Below are positions 10,622-35,158 of a stretch of DNA of 47,266 bases, one piece after another. The notes under the pieces are model-generated. The model worked only from the letters and a program-made list of their open reading frames with translations. It had not been told where the DNA came from and did not search any database. The stretch is taken from the NCBI GenBank assembly GCA_003516285.1, contig DPCK01000113.1, forward strand, positions 1-47,266. Direction: 5' to 3'. The position numbers and the translations under genes are program-made. This DNA is from Lutibacter sp. GTDB lineage: Bacteria > Bacteroidota > Bacteroidia > Flavobacteriales > Flavobacteriaceae. Within the stretch, counting starts at the first letter, position 1. Each line of letters opens with the position of its first letter.

Positions 10622-10626
10622 CATTT

Positions 10627-15462: not shown

Positions 15463-16133
15463 GCATAATACCCTTGAAAAGCCAAAATTAAAAATATGGC
15501 GTATTGAATTCCCGTAAAACCGTATCCTTTTACAAAATACAGCGGAATAGAAACCACATTGCCCGCAATCCAAAATAGCCAGTTTTCTAATTTCTTATTG
15601 GCCATTAACCACATTCCGGCAAAAAAGATTCCGGTGGTAAAAGTATCTAAAAATGGCGTAATTTTTCTAAAATCTTCTAAATTTCCGGCAGTTAAGTTGG
15701 TGATGGCGTAATCAACACTTTCCTTAAAATTCAAATGATTTGGCATCACGTTATAATATCTGTAAACGATTATTACAAAAATGGAGGTGAATAAAAAAAT
15801 GCCAAATGTCTTTAATTTATCAAGGGTATTGGTTCTTGAAATTGGCAAATGGTGTTGTTTGTCATCAACAATTCTGCTCCACATATACCAGCCATAAAAA
15901 CTCATTATCGTATAATAAATATTGATAATTAAATCGCCGTATAATGACCATTGCACCAATAAATACACATACAACGCGGTGCTGATGATGCCCGTTGGAA
16001 ACACCAAAATATTTTCTTTTTTGGCATAGAAAACACTCATAACGCCAAAAATAGCGGCAATTAATTCGAGTGAAATATGTAGCGCGCTTGCCGATTGATA
16101 AGGTTCTATAAAAAAGTTGAGGATGTCATTCAT
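15432..16133 (-). CDS. pnuC: PnuC-family vitamin transporter (nicotinamide riboside or thiamine)
   Basis: LELIAAIFG, YGWYMW, LMANKKLENWLFWI, terminal GYYAW. Confidence 0.88.
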   Translation of the reverse strand: MNDILNFFIEPYQSASALHISLELIAAIFGVMSVFYAKKENILVFPTGIISTALYVYLLVQWSLYGDLIINIYYTIMSFYGWYMWSRIVDDKQHHLPISRTNTLDKLKTFGIFLFTSIFVIIVYRYYNVMPNHLNFKESVDYAITNLTAGNLEDFRKITPFLDTFTTGIFFAGMWLMANKKLENWLFWIAGNVVSIPLYFVKGYGFTGIQYAIFLILAFQGYYAWKKNLNKQT

Positions 16134-16136
16134 AAG

Positions 16137-16853: not shown

Positions 16854-17484
16854 TTTTTGAAGGTTCTAAAGCGTAAACCAAGGTAAATCCGCCAAGTTGT
16901 TCAAACCGAATATCATAATTTTTATCCCAGCCTTCCACTTTTATATAACCAGTGGTTTTTTTGTCAGCAATTTGAAATGAATTAATATCAATATCATTTT
17001 TAAAGGTCAATCCGCCAAAAGGATAAATTTTATACAAAGATTCTTTTGCGCCCCAAATTACTGTCAATTGTTCAATATAGTCATCATCTTTATGGATGAA
17101 TCCTTTTTCAAAATTGACAAACCGATGTTGGATGATTTTTATCTTTTCCCTGTTTTTTTCAATGTCGATTCCAACGGCAGCATCACTAATTGCTATCGCC
17201 GAAAAAGTGAAGGAATGGGTGATGGAAATATTTTTTTCGTCGGTTAAATGCGGTTTGCCGTTAACGTTGTAAAATAAATCTAAGTCGGAATAACCAGCTG
17301 CTTTTAACAAATGCCGAACACTCAAAAATCCGCGTTTGTGAAGATCGGATTTCATTGAAATGAGCCTTTCTTCGCTTCTTTCCGTCAACAGCATATTTTC
17401 AGTCAAATCACTAAGGGATTCTTCAATTTTCCACACATAAATGGTGGTATGATTATTTGGCTTAATAGTTTTATATAAAGGCAT
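16846..17484 (-). CDS. 4'-phosphopantetheinyl transferase superfamily protein
   Basis: GKPHL, SITHS, VGIDIE, WGAKESLYK. Confidence 0.88.
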   Translation of the reverse strand: MPLYKTIKPNNHTTIYVWKIEESLSDLTENMLLTERSEERLISMKSDLHKRGFLSVRHLLKAAGYSDLDLFYNVNGKPHLTDEKNISITHSFTFSAIAISDAAVGIDIEKNREKIKIIQHRFVNFEKGFIHKDDDYIEQLTVIWGAKESLYKIYPFGGLTFKNDIDINSFQIADKKTTGYIKVEGWDKNYDIRFEQLGGFTLVYALEPSKNE

Positions 17485-18977: not shown

Positions 18978-20513
18978 TTACCCCAGCCAACCTTCACGGT
19001 CTAAACTTCGGTATTGAATGGCTTCAGAAATATGTGATGTAGAAATCTCTGCAACACCTTCTAAATCAGCAATGGTTCTGGCAACTTTTAAAATCCGGTC
19101 GTAAGCTCTGGCAGATAAACTTAAGCGTTCCATCGCATTTTTAAGCAAGATGCTGCATTCTGGCAGCAGTTTACAATATTTTCTGATTTGTTTCACGCTC
19201 ATTTGCGCGTTGTGATGCACATTTCCAAATTCCGTAAAACGAAGGGTTTGAATTTCCCTTGCTTTGGTAACTCGTTTTCTGATTTCGGTGCTTGGTTCGC
19301 TTAATTGTTCTTCGGAAAGTTTCTCAAAAGGAACAGGATTCACTTCAATATGAATGTCAATTCTGTCTAATAACGGCCCGGAAATTTTACTGAGATATCG
19401 TTGCATTTCAAAAGGTGAAGAGGTTTTTGGCGAATCGGGATCGTTAAAATAACCGCTTGGAGACGGATTCATACTGGCCACCAACATAAAACTGCTTGGG
19501 TACGTCACCGAGAATTTCGCCCGTGAAATGGTGATTTCCCTGTCTTCCAAAGGTTGGCGCATCACTTCTAAAACGGTGCGTTTAAACTCGGGCAATTCAT
19601 CCAAAAATAAAACGCCATTGTGTGCCATAGAAATTTCTCCCGGTTGTGGATATTGTCCGCCGCCGACAAGGGCGATGTCTGAAATCGTGTGATGCGGCGA
19701 GCGAAACGGTCGCTGGCACATCAAACCGCTTTCTTTTATTTTTCCAACAACGGAATGTATTTTTGTGGTTTCAAGCGCTTCCTGCATCGTCATAGGAGGC
19801 AAAATGGAAGCCAGTCTTTTGCTTAGCATTGTTTTTCCGCTTCCCGGTGGTCCGATTAGGATGATATTATGTCCGCCAGCTGCGGCAATTTCCATAGAGC
19901 GTTTAACTGATTCCTGGCCTTTTACATCGGCAAAATCAAATTCGGGGTGCTCTAAATTTTTGTTGAATTCAAATTGGACATCAATAATTGTTTGTTCCAG
20001 TTCTGTTTTTCCGTCGAAAAAATCAATGACTTCTGTAATATTTTCAACGCCATAAACTTTTAAATCAGAGACAATTGCTGCTTCTTTGGCATTTTGTTTG
20101 GGCAGAATAAATCCTATAAAATTTTCTTCAAGCGCTTTTATGGCTATGGGCAAAGCGCCTTTTATGGGCTGTAAACTTCCGTCTAAAGAGAGTTCGCCCA
20201 TAATAATGTAGTCGCCAATTTTATTGGTATTAATTTGGTTTGAAGCGGCGAGTATGCCAATGGCCAAGGTAAGGTCGTAGGCCGAGCCTTCTTTGCGCAT
20301 ATCGGCCGGAGCCATATTGATGGTGATTTTTTTGCCCGGAAAATGGTATTTGTTGTTTTTTAATGCTGCTGAAATCCGGAAACTGCTTTCTTTTATTGCA
20401 TTATCCGGCAATCCAACTAAATGGTATCCAATACCTTTGTCAATATTTACCTCCACAGTAATATTGGTGGCTTCAACGCCGAACACGGCGCTGCCATAAA
20501 CTTTTTCCAGCAT
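18978..20513 (-). CDS. comM: YifB/ComM Mg-chelatase-like AAA+ ATPase
   Basis: [52 protein letters not shown]. Confidence 0.93.
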
Positions 20514-20679
20514 ATTTTTTAATTTTCATAAAAATAGCTAAAAATTTAATGCAATAAATTTTTACAGCAATGTTTGTTGCGTTTTTTTACTAATGTAAGA
20601 TATATTCACGTAAATATCAGCAGGAAGTATAAGAAATAAATACAATAATTAAATATTATTGAAAATAAATATAAAAAAA

Positions 20680-20733
20680 TTTGGAAAACAAAAAAAAATA
20701 ATTAAATTTACTGACTGAGTGATTAGTCAATAA
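20680..20733 (+). promoter_or_regulatory. Promoter and TetR-type operator of the catabolic operon
   Basis: TTTG (20680) N19 TAAATTTA (20703); imperfect palindrome TTAC-TGACTGA-GTGA-TTAGTCA-ATAA at 20708-20733 covering the predicted start site. Confidence 0.65.
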
Positions 20734-20737
20734 TAAA

Positions 20738-21304
20738 ATGAATACAGAAAACTTAAAAAAAAACAAGAAAAACGCCAAGCAACAAATTTTAAATGTTGCT
20801 TTAGAAATGTTTGCATCACAAGGGTATCATAAAACATCCACAGGCGCAATTTGCAAAGAAGCAGGAATATCTGCCGGTTTGTTATTTTATCATTTCTCTT
20901 CAAAAGAGATTTTGTTAAACGCCATTGTGAAAATGATACTTTCAAAAATTGACGGGACTTTGGATTATCAAGAAAACGATGATCCCAAAAAAGTGTTGTC
21001 AAACATTATAGATGTGTTCTTTAACTCTTTACAAAATGACAGGAAATATTGGGATTTGTATATGTCTTTATTGTACCAGCCCGATACTAAAGATCAAATT
21101 GGAAAAGGGGTTTTGGAACATTCGATAAAATACAGGCGGACTATTTTTCATTTGATGGAGTCTTTGGGATCGGCCAATCCAAAAGGAGATTCATTTGAGT
21201 TTGAAGTTTTTCGTGTAGGTGTTTTTGCTTCGTATTTAGCCAATCATAGCGAAGAATTGTTAAAAAAAGCTAAAGAAAAAATGAGATTGAAGTATTTAGA
21301 ATGA
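20738..21304 (+). CDS. TetR/AcrR family transcriptional regulator
   Basis: ILNVALEMFASQGYHKTS..ICKEAGISAGLLFYHFSSKE HTH. Confidence 0.95.
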   Translation: MNTENLKKNKKNAKQQILNVALEMFASQGYHKTSTGAICKEAGISAGLLFYHFSSKEILLNAIVKMILSKIDGTLDYQENDDPKKVLSNIIDVFFNSLQNDRKYWDLYMSLLYQPDTKDQIGKGVLEHSIKYRRTIFHLMESLGSANPKGDSFEFEVFRVGVFASYLANHSEELLKKAKEKMRLKYLE

Positions 21305-21332
21305 ATTATTAACTAACCAAACTATTATTATC

Positions 21333-23783
21333 ATGAATCAAAAAATTTTAACTTTCCTGTTTGTTTTTTTTATCTCAGGAGTGATTTTCGCGCAAGGCGG
21401 AATTAAAGGAACTGTTGTGGATGAATCTGGAGTGGCTATTTCACAGGCCGAAGTTTTCATTAAAAGTACAAATCAAGGAACAATCACCAACAATAAGGGT
21501 GAATTTGAACTTAGTAATGTTACAAATGGAACTTATACTGTTTCCTTTATTTATATAGGATTTGTAACAGTTGACAAAAGTGTTACCATCAATAACAATG
21601 TTGTAAATCTTGGTGTAATTACCTTAAACAGCAGTTATCAGGTATTTGAGGAAGTGGTTGTTTCCGGGTCTCGAAAAATGGAAAAAATAACGCAAGCACC
21701 GGTTACAATTAACGTAATTAGCGCGCGACAGCTGGATAATTTTGTGGGTGATCCAAGTGAATTGATTGCCCAACAAAAAGGGATTGATTTTATCAAAACC
21801 GGTGCTTTTGTGAGCGGATTTAATATTCGCGGATTTAACTCGGCATTCAATCCTAAAATGTTGCAATTAGATGATAACCGCTTTTCAACACTTATCGCAA
21901 CAGGTTTGCCATTTGGACCATTAAGTTCCATCATAAAAGAAGATATTGAAAGGGTGGAAATCGTTTTAGGACCTTCATCTGCGTTATACGGACCAAATGC
22001 CCACAACGGATTGGTAAATACCATTACAAAAACACCTTGGAAATATGAAGGAACTGAAATTGTTTTAGGAGCGGGTTCTTACGATGCTTTAAGTGCTCGT
22101 TTTAGACATGCTAATATATTGAATGATAAATGGGCTTATAAAGTGACTGGCGGTTATGCGGAAGGAACTGACGTAAATTGGACCGATTCCGTGTATGTTT
22201 ATAACCCTGGAATCGCGAAACCTGAATTGGAACTTGACCGAAAATCTAAATTTTTAAAAGCAGAAGCGTCGGTTTATTACAAACCAACTACAGACAGTGA
22301 GGTAAAAGCCATTTACGGAACAAGTAAAAGCAGCTATTTGGCAGTTACAAATGTTGGAAGGAATCAAATTAAAGATTGGGGAATTCAATTTTTGCAAGGA
22401 ACCTATACTTCAAAACGTTTGTTTGCACAACTTTATAAAACCTGGAGTTCAACAGATGATACTTATGCCATCACTACAAGAACCGAAAATTATTGGAATT
22501 TAATTAAAGCAGGAAAAACAAATGAAGAAGCTTTAGTTGGATCCTATGGAGGGAATAATCCGCCAATTTTTGTCGATAAATCAGATCGTTTAAATGCGGA
22601 GGTTCAATACAATAACAGTATTGGCGGTTTAGATTTTATTATTGGGGTACAATATCAAAAAGATAAAGCCGACAGTAGGGATACTTATTTGTTGGATGCT
22701 ACAGGGCCAATTATTATTGAACAAAAAGGATTGTACGGGCAATTGGAATACAAAATAGGGGAATCAGGCGTAAAATTAATTGCTGCAGCTCGTGGTGATG
22801 ACCACGATTTATATGGATTCAATTTTATTCCTAAAGCCGGTATTACCTATACTGTTGATAAAGGTACTTGGAGATTTACTTACGGAAAAGGAATTGCTTC
22901 ACCAACAATTTTAAATTTAAGCGGTGATTTATTTGGCGGAATTATTTTAGGTAACGGCGAAGGATTTACCTTATCCGATGGTTCAAAAATAAAGCCGGTT
23001 GAAGTTGAGACTATTCAAACGTTAGAATTAGGTTACAAAGGTTTTTTATCCGAAGGAAAATTGTTTTTGGATGCAAATACCTACTATAATATGTCTGAAA
23101 ACTTCCTAAGTCCATTGATCAATATTGTGCCAACAGGTTTGGCCGGAGGTCCGGTTGTGACACATCGTGGAGATCAGCCAATTGAAGAATTAACGGTTGG
23201 TTTGGCGCCAGGATATTATGATGCCGGCGGTTATATTTTAACGTACTTAAACTTTGGGAAAGTTGATACTTACGGATTTGATCTTGGGTTGACTTATTAT
23301 TTCAATGAAAATTATAATATGACGCTTAACTATTCCTTTTTTGATTATAAATTGGATAAAAAGGATATGGCCAATGATGGAGACAAAAATGGTGTGGTAA
23401 ATGTATTAGATTTACCAATTAATACGCCGAAAAATAAAATAAGTTCTTCTTTTAACTTTACCCGTAACAAATTTTATGGGTCAATCTTATCTCGTTACAT
23501 TCAAAAGTATGATTTCTTTTCAGGAAGAAATGTGGCTGCCAAAACCAATACAGATTTAATAATTGGAGGAGATCCTGTTGTTGAAGGCCAACGAGTTGGA
23601 AAAAAATTCAATTACGGTCAGTTAGGCGGTTTCTTCTTAAGCTTAAATTTAGGCTATAATATTAATGACCACTTTTCATTAGGTGCTTATGTAAACAATA
23701 TTTTGGACACAAACAATTATGAATTTGTGGCTTCGCCGCCAAGTGAGAGAACTTTCGGTGCAGAGTTGAAAATAAAATTCTAA
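21333..23783 (+). CDS. TonB-dependent receptor (non-SusC type, no susD partner)
   Basis: Signal peptide, CarboxypepD-like N-domain, EEVVVSG TonB box region, IERVEIVLGPSSALYG plug motif, terminal Phe. Confidence 0.92.
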   Translation: MNQKILTFLFVFFISGVIFAQGGIKGTVVDESGVAISQAEVFIKSTNQGTITNNKGEFELSNVTNGTYTVSFIYIGFVTVDKSVTINNNVVNLGVITLNSSYQVFEEVVVSGSRKMEKITQAPVTINVISARQLDNFVGDPSELIAQQKGIDFIKTGAFVSGFNIRGFNSAFNPKMLQLDDNRFSTLIATGLPFGPLSSIIKEDIERVEIVLGPSSALYGPNAHNGLVNTITKTPWKYEGTEIVLGAGSYDALSARFRHANILNDKWAYKVTGGYAEGTDVNWTDSVYVYNPGIAKPELELDRKSKFLKAEASVYYKPTTDSEVKAIYGTSKSSYLAVTNVGRNQIKDWGIQFLQGTYTSKRLFAQLYKTWSSTDDTYAITTRTENYWNLIKAGKTNEEALVGSYGGNNPPIFVDKSDRLNAEVQYNNSIGGLDFIIGVQYQKDKADSRDTYLLDATGPIIIEQKGLYGQLEYKIGESGVKLIAAARGDDHDLYGFNFIPKAGITYTVDKGTWRFTYGKGIASPTILNLSGDLFGGIILGNGEGFTLSDGSKIKPVEVETIQTLELGYKGFLSEGKLFLDANTYYNMSENFLSPLINIVPTGLAGGPVVTHRGDQPIEELTVGLAPGYYDAGGYILTYLNFGKVDTYGFDLGLTYYFNENYNMTLNYSFFDYKLDKKDMANDGDKNGVVNVLDLPINTPKNKISSSFNFTRNKFYGSILSRYIQKYDFFSGRNVAAKTNTDLIIGGDPVVEGQRVGKKFNYGQLGGFFLSLNLGYNINDHFSLGAYVNNILDTNNYEFVASPPSERTFGAELKIKF

Positions 23784-23808
23784 GATATTCAATCATGTTT
23801 TGTTAATT

Positions 23809-23843
23809 AAGAACATCGGTTTTTTTTGCCGATGTTCTTTTCT
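23809..23843 (+). terminator. Intra-operon hairpin / leaky terminator after the TonB receptor
   Basis: AAGAACATCGG-N9-CCGATGTTCTT followed by TTCT. Confidence 0.6.
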
Positions 23844-23863
23844 AAAAACTTCAAATTAACTTT

Positions 23864-24703
23864 ATGGAGCATCGCTTTTTAAAAGCCAATGGCATTGAGC
23901 TCCATTATTTGGAGAAAAACAGCAAACTTAAGCCAACCATAATTTTGTTGCACGGATTAAGCGCAAATGCCAATTCTTTTGAAAGTTATATGAAGCTTTT
24001 GGAAAATTATAGGGTAATATCAGTTGATTTACGTGGCAGAGGTTTAAGCGAAAAACCCAATAACGGATATTCGATGCAATCGCATGCAAAAGATATTATT
24101 GAAATGATGGATGTTTTAAAAATTGACGAAGTAATATTGGCAGGCCACTCTTTTGGTGGATTGTTGAGTGTTTTTTTGGCAGTGCATTATCCAAAACGTA
24201 TATCAAAAATAATTTTGATTGATGTAGCCGCAAAAATGCATCCGGAAGTTCGAGAATTGGTAACGCCATCCGTTATGAGTCGGCTAAAAAAAACATGGAG
24301 CACTTATAATGAATACATTGAAAATATGAAAAAAGCACCTTTTTTACAAGGGCAATGGTTGCCAGAAATGGAATCATTTTATAAAGCTGATTGCAAAGAA
24401 ACTGAAAACGGCATTGAGTCGAGATCAAATTTCGAGCATATTCAACAAGCAGTTGAGGCTGTTTTAAATCCCGGTATTCATTGGGAAGAACTAATCACTC
24501 AAATAAAACAGCCTTCAATTGTTATAAATGGCACAGAACCTTTTGTGAATAATCAGGTGTTGGTATCAAAACAACATGCAATGGAAACAGTTCATATGAT
24601 GAAAAACTGCAAATATATTGCAGTGGCAGGAAATCATGTAACCATGCTATTTGGTAAAGGAGCGAAACAAACAGTTTCGGCAATTACAAAATTTATAAAC
24701 TAA
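23864..24703 (+). CDS. Cytoplasmic alpha/beta-fold serine hydrolase (esterase)
   Basis: LLHGL oxyanion loop, DLRGRGLS, GHSFGG nucleophile elbow, GNH catalytic His; no signal peptide. Confidence 0.88.
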   Translation: MEHRFLKANGIELHYLEKNSKLKPTIILLHGLSANANSFESYMKLLENYRVISVDLRGRGLSEKPNNGYSMQSHAKDIIEMMDVLKIDEVILAGHSFGGLLSVFLAVHYPKRISKIILIDVAAKMHPEVRELVTPSVMSRLKKTWSTYNEYIENMKKAPFLQGQWLPEMESFYKADCKETENGIESRSNFEHIQQAVEAVLNPGIHWEELITQIKQPSIVINGTEPFVNNQVLVSKQHAMETVHMMKNCKYIAVAGNHVTMLFGKGAKQTVSAITKFIN

Positions 24704-24708
24704 AAAAA

Positions 24709-26217
24709 ATGACTTTAGCGTGGATTCTTTTTACAATATATTTACTGGGAACTTCCTATTTAGGTTGGATTGGCTATAAAAAAACAGACGGTTTTAGCAG
24801 TTTTGCCATAGGGAAAGGAGATATGTCTCCAATTGTTGTTGGAATTACTTTAGCCGCAAGTACTGCTTCAGCAGCAACATTTATTATAAATCCGGGATTT
24901 ATTTATGTTGATGGATTATCGGCTTGGATAAATATGTTTTTAGGAACCTATTCAGGATTTATGATTATGCTTATTATTTTATCTTTTAAGTTTAGGTCGA
25001 TGGGTGAAAAAATGAAAGCGTTAACTATTCCCGATTGGATTGGCAAACGCTATCTGTCCAAAGATTTTTCATTGTATTTTGCCTTTATAAATTTATTGTC
25101 TTTTGCATTTGTGGTTTTGTTGGTGGGCGGAATTTCTATTGTTATGCAAAAACTGCTTGGCGTCAATAACATCACAGCGCTCTTAATTACCTTAATATTT
25201 GTTACCGGCTATGTTTTTTTGGGCGGAACTTATGCCCATGTGTATACAAACGTTTTTCAGGGTATTTTAATGATTGTGGTTTCCTGTGCAATATTATGGA
25301 CCGGAATTGAGCTGATGATGGAAACCCATGACCCTGGATTTTGGGAGCAAATTTCACAGAAAGATCCAAATTTACTGAAACTTATAAATCCCGAAGGGAA
25401 ATTATTCAACGATTTCTTTTCAACTTATGTTGCGGGATTTTTTATTGGCGCTGCCTTAGTGTGCCAACCCCATATTTTGACAAAGGCATTGTATGTAAGA
25501 ACAAATAAGGATGTCCGAAATTATATCATTGTGGTTGGTGTTGTACTGTTGTTGTTTTTATTGTTGGTTTCTGCTGGTTTCTTCGCACACATTACGGTTG
25601 ATCCGGCGCAGCTTATAGATCCTTCAACCGGTGAGTTTAGGCAAGATTTGGTGATGACGGTTTATTTAGCAAATGCTTTTCCCGATTGGACTTTTACCGT
25701 GGTAAGTATTGTGTTATTAGCTGCAGCAATGTCAACCCTGGATGGATTGCTGGTAAGTATTTCCACAATTACCGCAAATGATTTGGTCATTAATCTAATT
25801 AATAAATTCAGTAAAAAGGAAATATCTGAAGAACAAAAAATGAAATTATCTTTTAGGGTAAGTCATTTGGTGCTTATTGTAATCGCGATTATGGTTTTTG
25901 TGGTTAACATAAATCCGCCAAAATTGTTGGGAATTTATGGACAAGTTGGTGTTTACGGATTGGTATTGGCCGCTTTAGCTCCTTTATTGGTGGGTGTTTT
26001 ACTAAAAAACTCACCATTAAAACTATTATGGACATCCTCAATTCTCGCGATAATTACGCATTTCGTGTTGTACTTTTATGGAAATGAATTATTTCCAAAT
26101 TCTGGATTTACATTTGCAAATCCTTCTGTAACAGCTGTATTGTCAATTATTTTAGTAATTTTTCCTACCTTAGTTATTGCTTGGTTTCTCAATAAAAAAA
26201 TTATTGAAAATGAATAA
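24709..26217 (+). CDS. Sodium:solute symporter (SSS, PanF/PutP-like)
   Basis: About 13 hydrophobic segments, SAATFIINPG, TIPDWIGKRY, YVFLGG, AAAMSTLDG Na-site motif. Confidence 0.9.
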   Translation: MTLAWILFTIYLLGTSYLGWIGYKKTDGFSSFAIGKGDMSPIVVGITLAASTASAATFIINPGFIYVDGLSAWINMFLGTYSGFMIMLIILSFKFRSMGEKMKALTIPDWIGKRYLSKDFSLYFAFINLLSFAFVVLLVGGISIVMQKLLGVNNITALLITLIFVTGYVFLGGTYAHVYTNVFQGILMIVVSCAILWTGIELMMETHDPGFWEQISQKDPNLLKLINPEGKLFNDFFSTYVAGFFIGAALVCQPHILTKALYVRTNKDVRNYIIVVGVVLLLFLLLVSAGFFAHITVDPAQLIDPSTGEFRQDLVMTVYLANAFPDWTFTVVSIVLLAAAMSTLDGLLVSISTITANDLVINLINKFSKKEISEEQKMKLSFRVSHLVLIVIAIMVFVVNINPPKLLGIYGQVGVYGLVLAALAPLLVGVLLKNSPLKLLWTSSILAIITHFVLYFYGNELFPNSGFTFANPSVTAVLSIILVIFPTLVIAWFLNKKIIENE

Positions 26218-27391
26218 AAATGTCCATATTATCGGTGCCTATAACACAAAGTTTGGCAATCTTAAAGATGAAACTATTTATAGCCTGTATGAAGAAGCTG
26301 CAAAAGGTGCCATTAATGATGCAGGTATTGATATCAATGAAATTGATGCGGTGTTTGTTGGTAATTATAGCGGCGGAAGCTTTAACAATCAGGAACATAT
26401 TGCGCCTTATGGCGTAAATATTTTGCCTGAACTGCGCTTTAAACCTATGTATAGAGCCGAAAATGCCTGTGCTTCTGGCACTTCCGCCATTCATTTGGCC
26501 GAAATGGCCATTAAAGCGGGGAAAGCAAAAAAAGTTTTGGTGATTGGGGTTGAAAAAATGAATTCTTTGGACACTAAAAATACTTCACTTGCACTTGCAA
26601 AAGCGTCATACTGGGAAAAAGAAGGAAATTTGGGTTACACTTTTCCAGGATTATTTGCCGAATACGGAAAAGGATGGATGAGCCATTATGGCTATTCACT
26701 AGAACAATTGCAAGAATATTTAGCCGAGATAGCTTCAAAAGCATATGATTTTGGAAGCCAGAATCCTTTAGCACATATGCAAAAATCGCGCAGTAAAGAA
26801 GAGCTTTTAAATCTACCCGATGAAAAAAATCCAATGATTGCCTATCCTTTGCGTTTGCACGATTGTTCGTTGATTTCTGACGGCGCAGCAGCCGTCATTT
26901 TATCGGCAGAAAAAACAAACAATTCAGTAGAAATAGTTGCAACAAGTTCAGCCAGTGATTATTTAAATATTATAGAAAGTAAAAGAAATAATTACTTTCT
27001 TGACGGCGCTTCCGAAGCAACAAAAAGAGCTTTGCAACAGGCTAAAATGACTATTGATGACATTCAAATTGCCGAAGTTCACGATTGTTTTACCATCACG
27101 GAATTGTTAATTTATAGCGCTATCGGATTGACAAAAAAAGGAAATGAATTTGAAGCTTTGTTAAATAATGATGTTTATTTGGGCGGAAGGTGTGTTATAA
27201 ATCCATCGGGAGGATTAAAATCAAAGGGACACCCTGTTGGTGCAACAGGTGTTTCCATGCATGCGCTGTTATACAAACAACTTACAGATAACGCCATTGG
27301 CGCGCGGGTAAAAAATGCGAATGCGGCTTTGGTATTAAATATTGGAGGTTCAGGAGCAACCAATATGGTTTCAATTTTAAAACGCAGTTAA
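26210..27391 (+). CDS. SCP2-type thiolase (acetyl-CoA C-acyltransferase)
   Basis: ENACASG, SDGAAA, EVHDCF, NPSGGL..KGHPVGATG; no C-terminal CxGGG; start at 26210 overlaps the SSS stop. Confidence 0.9.
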   Translation: MNKNVHIIGAYNTKFGNLKDETIYSLYEEAAKGAINDAGIDINEIDAVFVGNYSGGSFNNQEHIAPYGVNILPELRFKPMYRAENACASGTSAIHLAEMAIKAGKAKKVLVIGVEKMNSLDTKNTSLALAKASYWEKEGNLGYTFPGLFAEYGKGWMSHYGYSLEQLQEYLAEIASKAYDFGSQNPLAHMQKSRSKEELLNLPDEKNPMIAYPLRLHDCSLISDGAAAVILSAEKTNNSVEIVATSSASDYLNIIESKRNNYFLDGASEATKRALQQAKMTIDDIQIAEVHDCFTITELLIYSAIGLTKKGNEFEALLNNDVYLGGRCVINPSGGLKSKGHPVGATGVSMHALLYKQLTDNAIGARVKNANAALVLNIGGSGATNMVSILKRS

Positions 27392-27411
27392 TATAACTAC
27401 AAAACACAAAT

Positions 27412-28398
27412 ATGAGAAATGCAAAAATAATAGGTTCGGGAATGTATGTGCCGAAAAAGGTGATTCCCAACAGTTATTTCAATGAAATTTTGCAGGAAGA
27501 CGTAGACACTTGGTTGCGCGAAAATGTACAAATTTATGAAAGACGATGGTGTGCTGATGATGAATCTACAGCCGATTTATGTGTAAACGCGGCCAAAGAA
27601 ATTTTAAAAAATGCCAATATAAAAGTCGAAGATTTAGATTTAATTATTATTTCGACTGATACGCCGGAATATATTTCGCCTTCAACTGCTTCCGTGGTGC
27701 AAGACCGATTGGGCGCAGTAAATGCTGGGACTTTCGATTTAAATTCAGCCTGTTCGGGGTTTGTGACGGCATTGGATGTGGGGGCCAAATATATTCAGGC
27801 CGATGAAAATTATAAATATATTTTGGTGTTGGGCGCTTATGCAATGTCGAAACACTTAAATAAATTGGATAAAAAAACGGTTACGTTGTTTGCTGATGGC
27901 GCTTCAGGTGTCATTTTAAAATCAGATGAAAGCGGCGCCGGAATGTTGATGTCACAATTAAAAACGAAAGGCGAATACAGCAGTTGGATGGGCATTTACG
28001 GCGGTGGAACACACAGTCCAACGACAGAAGCCAATTTAAAAACCGGCGATCATCAATTAAAATTCGTCAGAAAATTTCCGAAGGAATTGAATTCTGTCAT
28101 TTGGAGCAATATGATTATTGATTTATGTAAGCGCATAGATTTAACGCCACACGATATTGACCATTATTTTATCACGCAAATAAATATAAATAGCATCAAA
28201 GAAACGTTGGATATTTTAGGTGTTGGAATGGATAAAACAACCACCATCATGCATAATTACGGTTATACAGGATCGGCTTGTATTCCAATGGCTTATCATG
28301 AAGCTATTCAAAAAAATAAAATTAAAGAAGGGGATACAGTATTATTTATAGGTTCTGGGGGCGGATTGGCTTTTGCGGGCTCAATATTTAAATTATAA
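27412..28398 (+). CDS. FabH/KAS III-fold protein with non-canonical active site
   Basis: GSGMYVP, FDLNSACSGF, LFADGA, GSGGGL; HQAN replaced by TQIN and GNT replaced by GYT. Confidence 0.88.
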   Translation: MRNAKIIGSGMYVPKKVIPNSYFNEILQEDVDTWLRENVQIYERRWCADDESTADLCVNAAKEILKNANIKVEDLDLIIISTDTPEYISPSTASVVQDRLGAVNAGTFDLNSACSGFVTALDVGAKYIQADENYKYILVLGAYAMSKHLNKLDKKTVTLFADGASGVILKSDESGAGMLMSQLKTKGEYSSWMGIYGGGTHSPTTEANLKTGDHQLKFVRKFPKELNSVIWSNMIIDLCKRIDLTPHDIDHYFITQININSIKETLDILGVGMDKTTTIMHNYGYTGSACIPMAYHEAIQKNKIKEGDTVLFIGSGGGLAFAGSIFKL

Positions 28399-28405
28399 AT
28401 AAACA

Positions 28406-29911
28406 ATGGAAGTTTGGCAACAGGATTGGATGGCAAAATGGGCGGTTTATTCGCCGCACAAAATTGCTTTAAAAGAGTTTGAAACAGGAAATACGCTAAG
28501 TTATTTGCAGTTGAATTCATTGGGCAATAAATTGGCCTTCTATCTAACGGAACAGTTGAATTTAATAAAAGGTGACCGTATTGCTTTTGTTGCCGAAAAT
28601 TGTTTGGAATATTTGTTATTTTTTGTGGCAGCACAAAAAACGGGGATTATTTTAGTTCCTTTAAATTATCGGTTAACAACTGTTGAATTGAATCATTTAA
28701 TAGAAATTTCAGATCCAAAATTTATTGTACACGACAAAGTTTACAAGGAAAAAGTTTCTCAAACGGAGTTTTCAAAAAACAAATTGGGTGAAGTTTTTGA
28801 GATGACCGATTTTTCTCAAATACTTAAAAATCTTGAGGTTGAAAAATGCAATGCTGATTATCCCATAAATATTGTTGATGAAAACCATCCGATTTTTATT
28901 TTATTTACTTCGGGAACAACAGGCATCCCAAAAGGCGCTATGTACACCCATAAAATGTTGTTTTGGAACAGTATCAATACAGCAATTAGTTTGGTGATTA
29001 ATTCAGAAACAAAAACTATTAATTGTATGCCGCCTTTTCATACTGGAGGCTGGAATGTATTGGTAACTCCAGTGCTTCACCACGGAGGGAGTTTGGTTAT
29101 TATTAAATCATTTTGCGCTAGAACAATATTAAAGTTAATTGAAAAAGAGCAGTTTACTTTGTTTATGGGGGTTCCAACGATGTTAAAAATGATGTCGGAA
29201 GAACCTTCATTTCAAACAACCAATTTTTCAAGTTTAATGTATTGTATTGTTGGTGGTGAAGCGATGCCAATTCCTTTAATTGAAGCTTGGAAAGAACAAG
29301 GTGTTTTAATTCGTCAGGGTTATGGATTAACAGAAGTTGGTCCAAATTTAACTTCCCTGCACCAAGATGATGCCATAAGGAAAAAAGGATCCATTGGCCG
29401 ACCAAATTTTTACGTACAAACAAAAATTGTGGATGAAAACGGTGTTGAAGTCGGTAAAAATCAAAAGGGAGAATTGTTGTTAAAAGGACCAATGGTTTCA
29501 CCTGGATATTGGAAAAATGAGCAGGCAACCAATGAATCTTTAAAAGATGGCTGGTTTTTTACCGGTGATGTGGTAATCCGCGATGATGAAGATTATTTGT
29601 TTGTGGTTGATCGCATAAAAAATATGTTTATATCGGGTGGTGAAAATGTTTATCCGGCCGAAATTGAACGTGTACTTCAAGAACATCCTTCAATTTTGGA
29701 GGTCGCTGTTGTTAGCGTTCCTAATGAAAAATGGGGTGAAGTGGGAAAAGCTTTTGTGGTTGCTTCTGAAAAATCACTTACTCAAACAGAAATATTGGAT
29801 TATTGCAAAATCAAATTGGCAAAATTTAAAATCCCAAAATATATAGAATTTATAAAGGAGATTCCTAAAAACGATACCGGAAAAATAGACAGAAAATTAT
29901 TAAAAAAATAA
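28406..29911 (+). CDS. AMP-forming acyl-CoA synthetase/ligase
   Basis: FTSGTTGIPKG, GYGLTE, TGD, DRIKNMFISGGENVYPAEIE, PKNDTGKI. Confidence 0.92.
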   Translation: MEVWQQDWMAKWAVYSPHKIALKEFETGNTLSYLQLNSLGNKLAFYLTEQLNLIKGDRIAFVAENCLEYLLFFVAAQKTGIILVPLNYRLTTVELNHLIEISDPKFIVHDKVYKEKVSQTEFSKNKLGEVFEMTDFSQILKNLEVEKCNADYPINIVDENHPIFILFTSGTTGIPKGAMYTHKMLFWNSINTAISLVINSETKTINCMPPFHTGGWNVLVTPVLHHGGSLVIIKSFCARTILKLIEKEQFTLFMGVPTMLKMMSEEPSFQTTNFSSLMYCIVGGEAMPIPLIEAWKEQGVLIRQGYGLTEVGPNLTSLHQDDAIRKKGSIGRPNFYVQTKIVDENGVEVGKNQKGELLLKGPMVSPGYWKNEQATNESLKDGWFFTGDVVIRDDEDYLFVVDRIKNMFISGGENVYPAEIERVLQEHPSILEVAVVSVPNEKWGEVGKAFVVASEKSLTQTEILDYCKIKLAKFKIPKYIEFIKEIPKNDTGKIDRKLLKK

Positions 29912-30706
29912 ATGATGAGCATAAAAAATAAAGTTGCAGTAATTACAGGAGGCGCCAGTGGAATTGGAGCAGGTGTCGCCGTAGAATTAGCTAAATTGGG
30001 TGTTAAAATTGTTCTTGGAGACATGAATGAAGAAGGCTTAAATGCCAAAGTTGAAGAAATTCGAAAAAATGGAGGTGAAGCCATTGCGGTGAAAACAAAC
30101 GTCAGCCAAGAAGCCGATGTCATTAAATTAATGGATGCAGCGATAGAAACCTATGGTGCCATAAATATTGTAGTGCCTTCCGCAGGAATATTTAGGGATG
30201 CGTTTATGGTGAGCCCAGATCGGGAAACGGGAAAAGTATTTAAAACAATGAGCACTTCGCAATTTATGGATGTGATTAACGTAAATTTATTGGGAACGTT
30301 TTTAACCATACGTGAAGCTTCTATCAGAATGATTAATCATAAGTGCGAAGGCGTATTATTTACAATTTCTTCCATTAATAAAGAAGGTCAGTTAGGCCAA
30401 TTAAATTACAGTTCAACAAAAGCTTCCGTGGCATTATGGCCAAAAATATTGGCTGGCGAGTTTCACGCAAAAAATGTAAAAGGAATTCGCGTTGTGGGTA
30501 TTGCTCCTGGTTATGTGGAAACGCCGTTATTACTGGGAATGAAACCCGAAGTGTTGGAAAGTATTGTTAAGGACGTAACCATTGGAAGATTGGTTAAAAT
30601 TGATGAAATTGTAAACGCCTTAATTTTTGCCATTCAAAATGAAGCAGTTACCGGAACTACGCTTGAAATTACTGGAGGCGTTATTTCTAGAGGACTGGTA
30701 AAATAA
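29912..30706 (+). CDS. Classical SDR, FabG/PhaB-like 3-hydroxyacyl-CoA dehydrogenase/reductase
   Basis: TGGASGIG, GDMN, SAGIFRD, YSSTK, IAPGYVET. Confidence 0.88.
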   Translation: MMSIKNKVAVITGGASGIGAGVAVELAKLGVKIVLGDMNEEGLNAKVEEIRKNGGEAIAVKTNVSQEADVIKLMDAAIETYGAINIVVPSAGIFRDAFMVSPDRETGKVFKTMSTSQFMDVINVNLLGTFLTIREASIRMINHKCEGVLFTISSINKEGQLGQLNYSSTKASVALWPKILAGEFHAKNVKGIRVVGIAPGYVETPLLLGMKPEVLESIVKDVTIGRLVKIDEIVNALIFAIQNEAVTGTTLEITGGVISRGLVK

Positions 30707-30736
30707 GAGATTTCTATTCTTTTAAATTGAAATACA

Positions 30737-31702
30737 ATGATTAAAAAAGTTCAAAAAATTATCGGGTTGTTTTTGTTGCTGACGAGTTTTCAGCTCATTT
30801 CCCAAAATAGTTTGGTTGAAATCACCGACTTTGGTGCCAACAAAGGAAATTTGGAAATGTACGTTTATAAGCCGATAAATAACGATTTGAAAGTGCCTTT
30901 GGTGGTGGTTTTGCATGGTTGCGTTCAAACAGCCAATGAAATTGCAGAACAAAGTGGATGGAATACTTTAGCGGATGCCAATAATTTTATGGTAATTTAT
31001 CCCCAGCAAAAAGTGGAGAATAATTTAAACAAATGTTTTAATTGGTATGAAAATTTGGATATTTCCAAGAATGACGGGGAATCTGAAACCATCAAAGAAA
31101 TGATTCAATATGCCATTCAGAATTTTGATGTTGATCCTTCAAAAATTTTCGTGACAGGCATTTCAGCAGGCGGAGCAATGGCAAATGTGTTAATGGCGAA
31201 TTACCCGGATTTGTTTAAATCAGGGGCTATTATGTCTGGAATTCCTTTTAAAGCAGCTAACGATTTAGCGACAGCTTATGCCGCAATGCAAGGAAAAGTT
31301 GAAAAAACACCCGATGAATGGGTGACTTTAATAAGCAATAATAATCCGAATTATGAAGGAAAATATCCAAAAATCGTTATTTTTCATGGCACTGATGATC
31401 CGTTTGTGAATGTAAAGAATGCCGAAATAATTGAAATTCAATGGAAAGGAATTCATAAAATAGCTAGCGATCCAGCAATTATTCCTGAATTTAATGGAAA
31501 TCCTGAAATTGCCAAAACCACTTACTTCAAAAATAATTGTCCGATAATTGTTAAATACGAAATTAACAACCTTGGCCACGCTATGGCGGTTGATCCCGGG
31601 ACAGAAAAACAGCAGGGAGGAAATGTCGCCAGATTTGCGTTGGATAAAAATTTTCACACCACTTATTGGACGGCCAAATTTTTTGGAATGATAAGCGATT
31701 AG
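30737..31702 (+). CDS. PHB depolymerase family esterase (scl-PHA depolymerase catalytic domain type 1 / LpqC-like), Sec-exported
   Basis: Signal peptide, FGANKGNLEM, LHGCVQ, YPQQ, CFNW, GISAGG lipase box, FHGTDD, LGHA, terminal FFG. Confidence 0.85.
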   Translation: MIKKVQKIIGLFLLLTSFQLISQNSLVEITDFGANKGNLEMYVYKPINNDLKVPLVVVLHGCVQTANEIAEQSGWNTLADANNFMVIYPQQKVENNLNKCFNWYENLDISKNDGESETIKEMIQYAIQNFDVDPSKIFVTGISAGGAMANVLMANYPDLFKSGAIMSGIPFKAANDLATAYAAMQGKVEKTPDEWVTLISNNNPNYEGKYPKIVIFHGTDDPFVNVKNAEIIEIQWKGIHKIASDPAIIPEFNGNPEIAKTTYFKNNCPIIVKYEINNLGHAMAVDPGTEKQQGGNVARFALDKNFHTTYWTAKFFGMISD

Positions 31703-31739
31703 TCTGTTTTTAAAATTTTATGAATTGTTATGAGTTTAC

Positions 31740-32774
31740 TTAAAACTTTATAAAAAGTTTTTTTGTTGACTCCCGTTCTACCAGTTTTGTTTTAACTATT
31801 TCAGTTTTAACGTCATCAAATTCAATTTTTTCTTCAATTTTATTTATCAATCGTGTTGCGGCAATTTCGCCGGTTGTATGGGCAAAACGATTCACGGCGG
31901 TTAAAGGCGGAATGGTATATCTCGATAAAATTCCGTTGGTAAAACTTACAATGGAGATATCTTCCGGTACTTTTATGCCTCGCGCATTTAAAACTTGTGT
32001 GGCAACGGCGCCCGAAACTTCGTCGATAATAAACATCCCGTCCACTAGGTTATTGTCTAACATTTTATTAATGCGTTCTTTCAAATGTGTTTCGTCTTCG
32101 AGTCTTAAAATCAGATTTTCATTAGGCGTAACATCGTGTTTTGTAAGTGCTTTTAAATAGCCGTTAACGCTAAACTGGCCAATATTTATTTCTTCGTCAG
32201 TGGAGATAAGCGCAATATTTTTACAGCCTGATTTCATTAAAAAACGGGTAGCTTTGTAACCGCTTTTAACATTGTCGGTCACAACTTTGTCACAATGAAT
32301 ATCAATATGAACGCGGTCATACAATACAATGGGCGTTCCTTCTTCCAAAATGAGGTTAAAGTGCTCGAAATTTCCAATTCGCATAGTTTCTTCTGAAATG
32401 CAGGCAATAAATCCGTCAATAGTTCCGTTTGAAAGCATTTCCATCGTGTCCACTTCTTTTTTGAAGGATTCATTGGTGATGCAGGTAATGATATTGTACC
32501 CTTTTTCAGTAGCCACTTTTTCAATACCGCGAAGCACTCTGGCAAAATAATAATTTAAAATATTAGGCAGTATGATACCAATGGTTTTTGTTTTTTTATT
32601 TTGCAAACTCAAGGCCAGTGTATTGGGCTTGTATTTGTGCAATTTGGCATATTCCTGAATTCGTTTTTTGGTATCGTCACTAATTTCATAGCTGTCGTTT
32701 AACGCTTTTGAAACCGTTGAAATAGAAACTTGCAATGCCAGTGCAATTTGCTTTATAGTGATTCTTTTACTCAT
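31740..32774 (-). CDS. LacI family transcriptional regulator
   Basis: TIKQIALALQVSISTVSKALN HTH, YKPN, VPEDISIVSF, LVEREST. Confidence 0.95.
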   Translation of the reverse strand: MSKRITIKQIALALQVSISTVSKALNDSYEISDDTKKRIQEYAKLHKYKPNTLALSLQNKKTKTIGIILPNILNYYFARVLRGIEKVATEKGYNIITCITNESFKKEVDTMEMLSNGTIDGFIACISEETMRIGNFEHFNLILEEGTPIVLYDRVHIDIHCDKVVTDNVKSGYKATRFLMKSGCKNIALISTDEEINIGQFSVNGYLKALTKHDVTPNENLILRLEDETHLKERINKMLDNNLVDGMFIIDEVSGAVATQVLNARGIKVPEDISIVSFTNGILSRYTIPPLTAVNRFAHTTGEIAATRLINKIEEKIEFDDVKTEIVKTKLVERESTKKLFIKF

Positions 32775-35158
32775 TTTTTTGGTGAAATAGTTAGTTTTGT
32801 GGAAATCTGTTTAATTTCTTCTTCATTCAATTTCATTTTTCTGAATTTGCCTTTGTTGTACATTTCAGCCTGATCTTTATAATGTTTGCTGAAAGGGTTT
32901 CCCGATTGCCCCGTCGGTACTATGCTGATGCTGTTTTCAACATCAGAAAAATCGATGATTCTTCTGGTTGAAGGACCAGCATTTACTTTATACAATCCAG
33001 AATCCGTATAGTTGAAACCCAGATTGTTAATCACTTCTCGTGCGCCATCTATTGGAAACGGACCCACATTAAAATACCGTTTTAAGGCAGCCACTTTACC
33101 AAGCGGATGTTCGTGCTCTAAGGTATGAACTTTTCCCCAATTCCAATCCAAAATGTCATTTCCAAGTTGCTTTTCCATTGATGCGACCGCTTCAGCCAAA
33201 GATCTTGACAGAATTTCTTTTCTGGTTTCTGTTTTGTTTTTGGTCGTTACATTATCCCACCAAATAGAATTTTCCTTTTCAATTTGTTCGGCAATTGTTC
33301 TTTTTGACAAATGTGTCGCTAAAAATTGGGTGAACAATTTCTCGCCCATTTCATCTTCAAAAGTGTTTTTTAAATATAGGTAAATCCATTTGTTATAAAT
33401 GGTTGGCGACACTTGGTCAACCGTATTTGAGCCGTCCCAAAGTTGAAGGATATCTATGGCTTTTTGTTCGCTTTTGCTAAAAGAACCATAATCCATAATT
33501 TTTGCAAATTCTTTGACCAATTCTGGTGCCACAGATGAAGTGACATCCGTAATCATAGCCGACATAGATTCCTTGTTCCAGTTATCTTTTGGTTCCAGCA
33601 GTTGCACAATGCGTCTGGCTCGATCTTCGGACAAATAATAACCGGGATACAGCATATTTGCAATGGAATCGGGCTGGTTGTTGGCGGAATACACATAATT
33701 CCAGGGCGGGTTTTCAGCCATCGGGTTTTCGCTGAAATCTAAATATTCAATAGGATCATCATCACCGGAAGCACCGTTTAAAATAAAATTTCTGTTAATT
33801 CCTGGCTTTAATTTGTACAATTTTCCCGTTGCCCACCAGGCTACATTTCCTGCTGCATCACCATACATAATATTCAATCCAGGCGCGTGAATCATAGATG
33901 CTCCTTTTTTAACGTCTTTCATTTCGGTTGCTCTTGAAATGGTATAAAGCGCAGCCAAAACTTCTACGTCAAATTGGGTGTAAATCCAAGACATCGCAAT
34001 GGGTTCTGTTTGCGTAATTGCTTCAAGCGCATCATTCATAATTGGACCGTGGCGCGAATTTCTTACCGTAATGGTTACATCATCGGCATCTTTTACTTTT
34101 ATGGTTTTGGTGAGCGTTTTGTAAGTTTCAAATCCGGTAGACGTTTTGTATTTTGTATTGTCTGTTGGGTCATTTTCTTCTTTATAAAAATCAATATCGT
34201 CATTTTCAAACATCGTCAATCCGTAGGCATATTTACGATTATGTCCCAATAAAGGAAAAGGAACACCCGCCAAATGATATCCGTACATTTCATAATCGGG
34301 CGTTACAATATGCGCTTCATACCAAACTGCCGGCTGCGAATAGGCGATGTGTGGATCGTTTGCAAAAAGCACTTTTCCTGTGGCCGATTTTTTAGGGGAA
34401 ACTACCCAACTGTTGCTTCCGATAAAAGGAGGAATTGGGGATTTTTCCATCACCTCATTAACATTTGCAACCATTTCAGAAAAATCGGTAATGTTTTCCT
34501 TTGAATTTTTGATGAATGTGGTATTTGGCCCGATTTCAATATTAAGTTCCTTTAAATAATCATCGCCTAATTTATCTTTTAGGATACTTAATAGCGGATC
34601 GGTTTTTTGGGCCATCGCAAAACTGAAAGACATATAGCCCAAAATATTGTAGATGTCGTTGAGTTGATAAGGTTCTTTTTCGATGCCAATTAAAGTGAAT
34701 TCAATAGGCGTTGGGCCGTTTTCAATAAATTGGTTAACACCGTTTAAATAAGCGGTTGCCAATTTGTAGACTTCCCCATTTTTGTCTAATTTTTCCATTG
34801 ATTTTCTGGATGCTTCTTCAATGCCTAAACTCACAAAAAATTGGTCGTTTTTGAGCATATCTTTTCCAAAAATTTCGGACAGTCTTCCCGGCGCAATTCT
34901 TCGCATCAACTCCATTTGCCAAAGTCGGTCCTGCGCATGAACGTAGCCTAAAGCTGTTGAAGCATCTAATTGGTTTTGAGCATAAATATGCGGAATTCCA
35001 TAATCATCAAAATATACAGAAGTCTCATTTTCAATGCCTGATAAAGCGATTTCACCTGAATAATCAGGTTTTAGGCTGTTAACATACACCCAGCCGCCAA
35101 TTAAAATCAGGGCGATTAGAACGCCAAAAATGAGTAAGATTTTTTTAAAAATGCGCAT
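32771..35158 (-). CDS. Penicillin acylase family Ntn-hydrolase
   Basis: N-terminal anchor, GIPHIYA, HAQDRLWQM, GSNSW nucleophile, ANDPH, SANN, GQSGNPFSKHY. Confidence 0.92.
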   Translation of the reverse strand: MRIFKKILLIFGVLIALILIGGWVYVNSLKPDYSGEIALSGIENETSVYFDDYGIPHIYAQNQLDASTALGYVHAQDRLWQMELMRRIAPGRLSEIFGKDMLKNDQFFVSLGIEEASRKSMEKLDKNGEVYKLATAYLNGVNQFIENGPTPIEFTLIGIEKEPYQLNDIYNILGYMSFSFAMAQKTDPLLSILKDKLGDDYLKELNIEIGPNTTFIKNSKENITDFSEMVANVNEVMEKSPIPPFIGSNSWVVSPKKSATGKVLFANDPHIAYSQPAVWYEAHIVTPDYEMYGYHLAGVPFPLLGHNRKYAYGLTMFENDDIDFYKEENDPTDNTKYKTSTGFETYKTLTKTIKVKDADDVTITVRNSRHGPIMNDALEAITQTEPIAMSWIYTQFDVEVLAALYTISRATEMKDVKKGASMIHAPGLNIMYGDAAGNVAWWATGKLYKLKPGINRNFILNGASGDDDPIEYLDFSENPMAENPPWNYVYSANNQPDSIANMLYPGYYLSEDRARRIVQLLEPKDNWNKESMSAMITDVTSSVAPELVKEFAKIMDYGSFSKSEQKAIDILQLWDGSNTVDQVSPTIYNKWIYLYLKNTFEDEMGEKLFTQFLATHLSKRTIAEQIEKENSIWWDNVTTKNKTETRKEILSRSLAEAVASMEKQLGNDILDWNWGKVHTLEHEHPLGKVAALKRYFNVGPFPIDGAREVINNLGFNYTDSGLYKVNAGPSTRRIIDFSDVENSISIVPTGQSGNPFSKHYKDQAEMYNKGKFRKMKLNEEEIKQISTKLTISPKK

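Follow-up and report, generated by a model that had tools for sequence, protein, structure and literature searches.

The window, i.e. the whole analysed stretch of 47,266 nucleotides from Lutibacter sp. (contig DPCK01000113.1), carries nine same-strand genes at 20738-31702 (+), which form an operon:

20738..21304, +, TetR-family regulator at the operon head (PF00440), found in the same place in Lutibacter loci
21333..23783, +, TonB-dependent receptor (PF00593/PF07715), likely the outer-membrane entry for oligomers
23864..24703, +, cytoplasmic alpha/beta hydrolase (PF00561) with GHSFG and Ser96, likely a hydrolase of 3-hydroxybutyrate (3HB) oligomers
24709..26217, +, sodium:solute symporter (PF00474)
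26210..27391, +, SCP2-type thiolase with intact ENAC, HDCF and GHP motifs (PRK07516, 399 bits vs. a cut-off of 412)
27412..28398, +, FabH-fold enzyme with Cys114, Asp83, Tyr143, Asn227, Trp231, Thr255, Tyr285, Cys290 and Ser315
28406..29911, +, acyl-CoA ligase (PF00501), nearest to PRK06839 (441 bits vs. a cut-off of 748)
29912..30706, +, FabG-like SDR of the NAD type with a GDM motif (best match PRK08217), likely an (R)-3-hydroxyacyl-CoA dehydrogenase
30737..31702, +, catalytic domain of a secreted type-1 short-chain PHA depolymerase with LHGC and GISAGG (NF050058, 269.7 vs. 150; TIGR01840, 189 vs. 108)

The thiolase was read from the ATG at 26210 instead of the TTG at 26177 given by the ORF caller; its top PDB matches were 6esq and trypanosomatid SCP2-thiolases. 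The ligase was closest to feruloyl-CoA synthetase and FadD13. A family search of the nine operon proteins gave no match to ACP or FabD families, in agreement with the preliminary description of this DNA, and the + frames of 20000-32000 contained no G.DSL motif. Rfam yielded nothing within the operon, the hydrolase had no match when compared with plasmids, and a promoter scan returned 61 sites against 45.9 ± 6.7 in shuffled sequences, none of which was assigned.

Elsewhere in the window a penicillin-amidase-family gene and a LacI regulator (32771-35158, -) converge on the operon end, an arrangement whose conservation is limited to Lutibacter loci. The stretch 4429-11503 looks like a sulfur-handling cluster, with two SulP transporters, an MBL-rhodanese fusion, DoxX, a rhodanese, Tll0287 and an HMA protein. 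A Flavo-1 RNA (Rfam RF01705, 62.5 bits) is located at 14200-14278 (-). At 14869-17484 (-) a PcrB-family gene is flanked by a PnuC-type transporter, an AAA_28 protein and a 212-aa ORF without a Pfam match at 1e-8. At 43480-47266 (+) an open frame extends over 1262 codons or more and continues past the window end; it looks like a large secreted protein.

The ORF at 27412-28398 encodes a FabH-fold protein of 328 aa. Its nucleophilic Cys114 (codon at 27751) is retained, but the His of HQAN and the Asn of GNT are absent. HMMER alignments to the solved FabHs 1zow, 2ebd, 8vd9 and 4nhd set TQIN with Thr255 (28174) opposite HQAN, and YGYTGSAC with Tyr285 (28264) opposite GNTSAAS; Cys290 has its codon at 28279. 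The three residues had been read in this way from the sequence beforehand, and coordinates and alignments agree with that reading. For comparison we used E. coli FabH numbering, which we take to be H244, N274, F304, R36, R151 and R249. An AlphaFold model built from a 32-sequence alignment (mean pLDDT 96.2) superposed on FabH over its entire length, best on 4ryb with Z 47.5, an rmsd of 1.7 Å and 318 aligned residues. This bears out the FabH fold assigned earlier; the solved structures nearest to the model were FabHs.

On the other hand, the protein missed the curated FabH cut-offs (TIGR00747, 218 vs. 292.1; PRK09352, 248.6 vs. 249). It scored 18.9 with the classical thiolase profile TIGR01930 (cut-off 240.55), 30.3 bits with the HMG-CoA synthase profile TIGR01835 (cut-off 360) and 147.3 bits with PRK06840 (cut-off 315), from whose His..GHxxxxD motif it differs. 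The nearest named loci were from Lutibacter at 88-96% identity, ESM Atlas matches were confined to clusters labelled KAS III, and viral contigs gave 56 matches of at most 38% identity. Three more FabH-type genes of the same genome contain HQAN (one is interrupted in the assembly), so that the gene at 27412-28398 is dispensable for fatty-acid synthesis. A FabH and two thiolases of this genome (G000; C22:44621-45640, C145:10100-11400, C47:14092-15200) are broken at or near Ns or frameshifts, probably by assembly errors.

A first homologue search gave 5917 matches among 8000 candidates. In the best 120 of these 5917, with 62-96% identity, C114, D83, Y143, N227, W231, Y285 and S315 were each present in 120/120 and T255 and C290 in 119/120, while H281 was found in only 81/120 and N282 in only 28/120. 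The second set comprised 119 proteins of 46-55% identity from 7232 matches at E 1e-60, its named members being Bdellovibrionota. D83, C114, Y143, N227, W231, T255, Y285 and S315 were each conserved in 119/119, position 290 was C in 100, A in 16 and S in 3, and the slots of H281 and N282 were occupied by D in 119 and R in 117 proteins. Since T255 and Y285 are kept across both sets, the Thr/Tyr replacement is neither chance nor a sequencing error. A takeover of the missing roles by His281 and Asn282, named beforehand as an outcome that would overturn the assignment, was ruled out because both positions vary. Cys290, to which attention had been drawn as an extra Cys, is present yet dispensable; its candidacy as a second catalytic Cys is weakened by A or S in 19/119. 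The conservation expected of TQIN and GYTGSAC accordingly held for T255 and Y285, but not strictly for C290. The invariant Asp83 and Ser315 had been overlooked and are better mutagenesis targets than Cys290.

A tree was built on an alignment of 129 distant sequences, from which 9 had been excluded for their broken C-termini. The sequences without His/Asn formed a single clade of 23 leaves (support 0.985) versus 97 His/Asn FabHs. Within this clade Y285 was found in 22, T255 in 19, D83 in 21 with E in one more, S315 in 19, C290 in 20 and C114 in 21 members, the other two having S or G, and the clade no longer has the basic residues that FabH typically carries at positions 38, 154 and 260. Among the named members are Anaerolineales, Caldisericia, Bipolaricaulota, a spirochaete and Thermofilum, and the gene also occurs in the cultured Chondrinema litorale; altogether the clade amounts to thousands of related sequence clusters from Bacteroidota, Bdellovibrionota, Chloroflexota and archaea. 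It has no member in the PDB, where the best matches were His/Asn FabHs of about 30% identity. Searches of the open-access literature, judged by titles and the start of abstracts, found no description of the Thr/Tyr clade or its cassette. The site of the clade is rebuilt, with Asp83, Tyr143, Asn227, Trp231, Thr255, Tyr285 and Ser315 in common beside Cys114. That invariant polar residues were gained together argues for an altered reaction rather than decay.

How does this site compare with known enzymes? Y285 presumably lies in the same loop as Tyr344 of Ltp2. The thiolase-fold aldolases Ltp2 and Sal employ a Tyr for acid/base catalysis, and Ltp2 Tyr344 protonates an acyl-CoA enolate (excerpt of PMC12329534). 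The likeness would consist in Tyr (and Tyr/Cys) with an acid/base role in a thiolase-superfamily site put to a new use. Yet Sal is without the nucleophilic Cys and both Ltp2 and Sal need DUF35, whereas the FabH-fold protein keeps its Cys and has no DUF35. S315 stands where the GFGGG of FabH has Phe (GSGGG), and by FabH numbering we take the Gly two residues after it to be the oxyanion-hole Gly. The acid/base Cys of thiolases is likewise two residues ahead of the oxyanion Gly (excerpt of PMC6790690). However, a profile alignment to classical thiolase, which was weak (E 1.6e-7), put the CxG Cys opposite F312 instead of S315 and the GHP His opposite H281, which is variable among homologues. The thiolase fingerprints NEAF/HDCF, GHP and CxG are absent, with TQIN, GYT and GSGGG in their place.

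D83 aligned to the Glu of the GTES motif in an HMG-CoA synthase homologue (confidence 9). This Glu is a member of the E-C-H-N tetrad (excerpt of PMC12960953) and has been given a general-base role (excerpt of PMC13412983). The corresponding residues here are D83, C114, T255 and Y285; the protein is like HMG-CoA synthase in its Cys and its carboxylate in the Glu slot, and differs in the replaced His and Asn and in its catabolic context. Y285 and C290 aligned to the H and D of the PRK06840 motif GHxxxxD (probability 100), and the five-residue spacing of this motif equals that of His296/Asp301 in ChlB3 (excerpt of PMC9573744). The Cys-His-Asp triad of the CerJ/ChlB3 type, placed via PRK06840 at ChlB3 spacing, is absent, its slots being occupied by Y285 and C290. 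CerJ and ChlB3 are FabH-fold enzymes with altered triads that transfer acyl groups to hydroxyls, and ChlB3 without an acceptor hydrolyses its own acyl-enzyme (excerpt of PMC9573744). They have in common with our protein a FabH fold without the decarboxylation pair and, as proposed here, a ping-pong acyl transfer between thioester and hydroxyl ester, but they are biosynthetic tailoring enzymes with a His-Asp pair. Judged by its residues the FabH-fold protein would not be a CerJ-type member, though it may work alike; the analogy to CerJ drawn earlier thus stands for function and not for the His-Asp pair.

In both FabH and PKS enzymes a His/Asn clamp accompanies decarboxylation (excerpt of PMC5506619). 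Fold, nucleophilic Cys and about 30% identity connect the protein to FabH/KAS III (1zow, 2ebd, 4ryb, 1hn9). In contrast to these, His is replaced by Thr, Asn by Tyr and the Phe of GFGGG by Ser, Asp83 is new, the basic residues contacting CoA/ACP are gone, and the gene resides in a catabolic import operon without ACP. OleA presumably retains His/Asn plus Glu117 as a base, whereas His/Asn are absent here. We consider it very probable that the FabH-fold protein is not a decarboxylating FabH.

The surroundings of the clade gene were surveyed in 98 related loci, which are mostly from Bacteroidota, not independent and in many cases truncated by contig ends. They had an SSS/MFS transporter in 89, an SDR in 80, a ligase in 78, a hydrolase in 65, a thiolase in 34 (SCP2-thiolase in 15), a depolymerase in 9, PRK06840 in 4, DUF35 in 1 and a 3HB dehydrogenase in 0 cases. 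For 42 loci both flanks were scored as present, although L096 is actually cut by a contig end. Among these the SDR occurred in all 42, the transporter in 41, the hydrolase in 39, an outer-membrane channel in 39 (the TonB receptor or, in its stead, an unnamed outer-membrane protein), the ligase in 37 and a thiolase in 17; the ligase is absent from 5 and the thiolase from 25. According to a signal-peptide heuristic every hydrolase is exported in 28/43 flanked loci, and 13/43 have a cytoplasmic one. Intact thiolases, 2-4 per genome, were found elsewhere in 5/5 genomes checked whose cassette has none. Strand beta2 ends in an acidic residue in 73/75 scored SDRs (78 examined), an Asp in the case of the window SDR, and not in the FabG of the Lutibacter genome. 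By an established rule for SDRs such a residue signifies NAD preference, suggesting that the cassette SDRs use NAD and work oxidatively.

We searched 401 Bacteroidota genomes, calling the clade gene at E ≤4e-127 (ordinary FabH about 1e-72) with motifs checked in part. The clade gene was found in 53, the ligase in 52 and both in 51 genomes; in one genome beyond these 51 (G198) the ligase is split across contigs. The ligase is the tightest partner of the FabH-fold gene across genomes. The clade gene of G289 is an orphan copy, and G391 keeps the ligase without a clade gene, showing that the ligase can function without the FabH-fold enzyme. The ligase is shared widely (51/53); the depolymerase is a local neighbour: the type-1 enzyme occurs in only 1/53 clade-positive genomes and was discarded as a family-wide marker.

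Outside the core pattern, a Chloroflexota locus (L018) has a CoA-transferase, a thiolase with DUF35 and a Liv-type ABC importer, and MaoC adjoins the clade gene in a single locus (L058). In Bacillus and Brevibacillus the family of the cassette ligase is found together with MaoC, uptake genes and PRK06840, an uncharacterised FabH-like family; the Bacillus stretch is listed without a thiolase. PRK06840 differs from the clade in keeping its own His and GHxxxxD, and since both share an operon in 4/98 loci they are not simple substitutes. For PRK06840 (L144:6084-8990, L083:4639-5658, L145:9001-10035) the label '3-oxoacyl-ACP synthase' looks doubtful, given its His and its GHxxxxD with ChlB3-like spacing. 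The same applies to the label 'o-succinylbenzoate-CoA ligase' of the Bacillus PRK06839 protein (1014.9 bits), which sits in a TetR-ligase-MaoC-PRK06840-NHL-Liv cassette. A suspected ligase fusion in G003 was dropped, as no second Pfam domain was found. In 42-45 loci the place of the TonB receptor is filled by a 177-aa lipoprotein and a 520-aa predicted outer-membrane protein (L010:12177-14323, L045:13422-14981), neither with a Pfam/NCBIfam match; they are likely an undescribed uptake pair. A conserved protein of about 475 aa without a family match, possibly a regulator, occurs in 17 loci and G391 (L037:5047-6477, L209:10288-11703). L030, L038 and L054 combine SDR, hydrolase, TonB receptor and a FabH-like gene, with no CoA ligase in the fetched stretch.

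Because the depolymerase is a local neighbour, the link of the cassette to 3HB rests on other neighbours. Besides the depolymerase of the window operon, which scored above two curated cut-offs, a 41%-identical homologue of the window hydrolase directly follows a 3HB dehydrogenase in G323. The best PDB match of a second cassette hydrolase was the B. thuringiensis PHB depolymerase 8ynv (5e-17), and its 44%-identical Deinococcus orthologues cluster with 3HB dehydrogenase in 2/2 records opened; two records of Streptomyces and Halalkalicoccus orthologues showed no 3HB context. Finally, the cassette of G391 has a cytoplasmic hydrolase and a 3HB dehydrogenase (340 bits vs. a cut-off of 307) replacing clade gene and SDR, and retains symporter, ligase, secreted hydrolase and TonB receptor. 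Across the 401 genomes a 3HB dehydrogenase match occurred in 5, with an overlap with the clade gene of 0/53 where about 0.7 is expected by chance; with only 5 positive genomes this anti-correlation is uninformative. The commonest cassette hydrolase matched meta-cleavage hydrolases in the PDB and not PHB enzymes. As the ligase is nearest to feruloyl-CoA synthetase/FadD13, esters of other hydroxy acids are possible substrates. We think that catabolism of 3HB/PHB oligomers is probably the role of the cassette. Residues and neighbours both support the initial proposal of a non-decarboxylating, ACP-independent enzyme in this context.

From the observed fold, residue changes, conservation and operon make-up we infer a pathway and a mechanism. 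Tentatively, and in line with the initial proposal, we favor a transacylase without decarboxylating activity, which would cleave the esters of imported 3HB oligomers with CoA to give 3HB-CoA, a reading that is quite possible but falls short of being probable. The depolymerase would produce oligomers outside, which would be imported via TonB receptor and symporter and receive CoA at their acid end by the ligase. The FabH-fold enzyme would then cut the ester and release 3HB-CoA for oxidation by the NAD-type SDR, with a thiolase completing the sequence. In the active site the ester carbonyl would be attacked by Cys114, assisted by the oxyanion hole of the backbone, and Tyr285 would supply a proton to the departing 3-hydroxyl. 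Asp83 might bind the 3-OH of the 3HB-Cys intermediate or serve as a base before the acyl group passes to CoA. A single ligation would suffice for the whole oligomer. Such ester thiolysis requires only a Cys, a backbone oxyanion hole and an acid/base, all of which are plausibly present. The PhaZ1 depolymerase of Ralstonia eutropha is presumably unrelated to the FabH-fold protein. It is alike in the proposed type of reaction, CoA splitting a PHB ester to 3HB-CoA, but acts on the cell's own granules, whereas a FabH fold would act here on imported fragments. Thiolysis of PHB by CoA thus has a precedent (excerpt of PMC3430594).

The swap in G391 of the clade gene for a hydrolase and of the SDR for 3HB dehydrogenase suggests a match with ester thiolysis. 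The same reading leaves the thiolase step to other genes, which explains why thiolases are optional in the cassette and present elsewhere. The pairing of the ligase family with MaoC and PRK06840 in Bacillus and Brevibacillus is also counted in its favor. Where the hydrolase is only exported (28/43 flanked loci by the heuristic), no cytoplasmic cutter would exist besides the FabH-fold enzyme. Against this, G391 is a single genome and retains the ligase, which in turn is missing from 5/42 flanked loci and from the orphan copy in G289. A type-1 depolymerase in only 1/53 genomes and a hydrolase and ligase nearest to non-PHB enzymes count against it as well. Exchange of an ester for a thioester is, moreover, uphill. 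The window offers a candidate for each step between PHB and acetyl-CoA even if the FabH-fold gene is left aside, and the cytoplasmic hydrolase here (and in 13/43 flanked loci by the heuristic) could split oligomers unaided.

The main competitor, which we regard as unlikely, is a new degradative thiolase: Thr255 and Tyr285 would stabilise and protonate the enolate when the C-C bond of an SDR product, acetoacetyl-CoA or a different 3-ketoacyl-CoA, is cleaved. The SDR as the most constant neighbour (42/42), the 25/42 flanked loci without a thiolase, the enolate protonation by Tyr344 of Ltp2 (excerpt of PMC12329534) and the presumed thiolase-like spacing of S315 (excerpt of PMC6790690 for the thiolase side) are in line with it. 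Yet the NEAF, GHP and CxG residues are all absent, the weak profile alignment does not place S315 on the CxG Cys, enolate stabilisation would have to come from hydroxyls alone, and an acetyl-enzyme leaves the invariant D83 without an obvious role. Intact thiolases adjoin the gene (17/42) or lie elsewhere (5/5 genomes checked and the Lutibacter genome), and G391 would still form acetoacetyl-CoA but does without the clade gene. With ester thiolysis redundant to the cytoplasmic hydrolase of the window and C-C thiolysis redundant in many loci neither reading is clean. It is rather improbable that the enzyme acts as a transacylase or thiolase on a different hydroxy-acid ester taken up by the cell (of longer 3-hydroxy fatty acids, a lactone or an aromatic ester), in which case the PHB links would be local additions. 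The rare depolymerase (1/53) and the non-PHB best matches of ligase and common hydrolase would fit, but four separate 3HB links in different lineages speak against it.

Asp83 in the slot of the HMG-CoA synthase base could alternatively act on the acyl-enzyme or acyl-CoA and drive an elimination, oligomer-CoA giving crotonyl-CoA and a shorter acid, or a hydrolysis instead of transfer to CoA. MaoC beside the clade gene in L058 and in PRK06840 operons and the acyl-enzyme hydrolysis by ChlB3 (excerpt of PMC9573744) would agree, but the constant partner is a dehydrogenase of the 3-hydroxyacyl-CoA type and not a hydratase, MaoC adjoins the clade gene in one locus, and nearly all cassettes already have hydrolases; we hold this to be improbable. 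A catalytically inactive scaffold subunit, like PhlA/MucA of HMGS/thiolase/DUF35 complexes or PqsB, is very improbable. Inactive subunits of such complexes exist (excerpt of PMC12960953), the adjacent SCP2-thiolase has the archaeal complex 6esq as its best PDB match, L018 combines thiolase and DUF35, and C114 is S or G in 2/23 distant members. However, C114 is kept in 239/239 nearer homologues alongside new invariant polar residues, SCP2-thiolase and DUF35 occur in 15/98 and 1/98 loci, and one DUF35 query of the Lutibacter genome, which is 89.5% complete, had no match. A normal malonyl-dependent FabH that uses other residues is highly improbable. Database labels, the near miss with PRK09352 (248.6 vs. 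249) and the FabHs as nearest solved structures point that way, but Thr/Tyr fill the His/Asn slots, H281/N282 are variable, the basic residues at 38, 154 and 260 are lost, the operon is without ACP, and three other HQAN FabH-type genes are in the genome.

Returning to ester thiolysis of 3HB oligomers, its wider form is more speculative still. The ligase might activate an oligomer once and the Cys/Asp/Thr/Tyr/Ser site of the FabH-fold enzyme might peel off 3HB-CoA units, a spiral resembling beta-oxidation. In Bacteroidota, the predatory Bdellovibrionota, Chloroflexota and some archaea it would take the place of the textbook route by hydrolase and 3HB dehydrogenase. This would amount to a widespread, undescribed scavenging of other cells' PHB.

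The protein is a real and widespread member of the KAS III/thiolase superfamily with a new set of residues and a putative reaction. Because the named relatives found here are labelled ketoacyl-ACP synthase III, their genomes are credited with a fatty-acid enzyme that is probably not theirs. If the favored reading is true, the superfamily would gain a new catalytic arrangement, and heterotrophs would have an ATP-sparing way of recycling PHB, its gene being present in 53/401 Bacteroidota genomes compared with 5/401 for 3HB dehydrogenase. The enzyme would then be relevant to the degradation of bioplastics and to obtaining 3HB-CoA from polyester waste.
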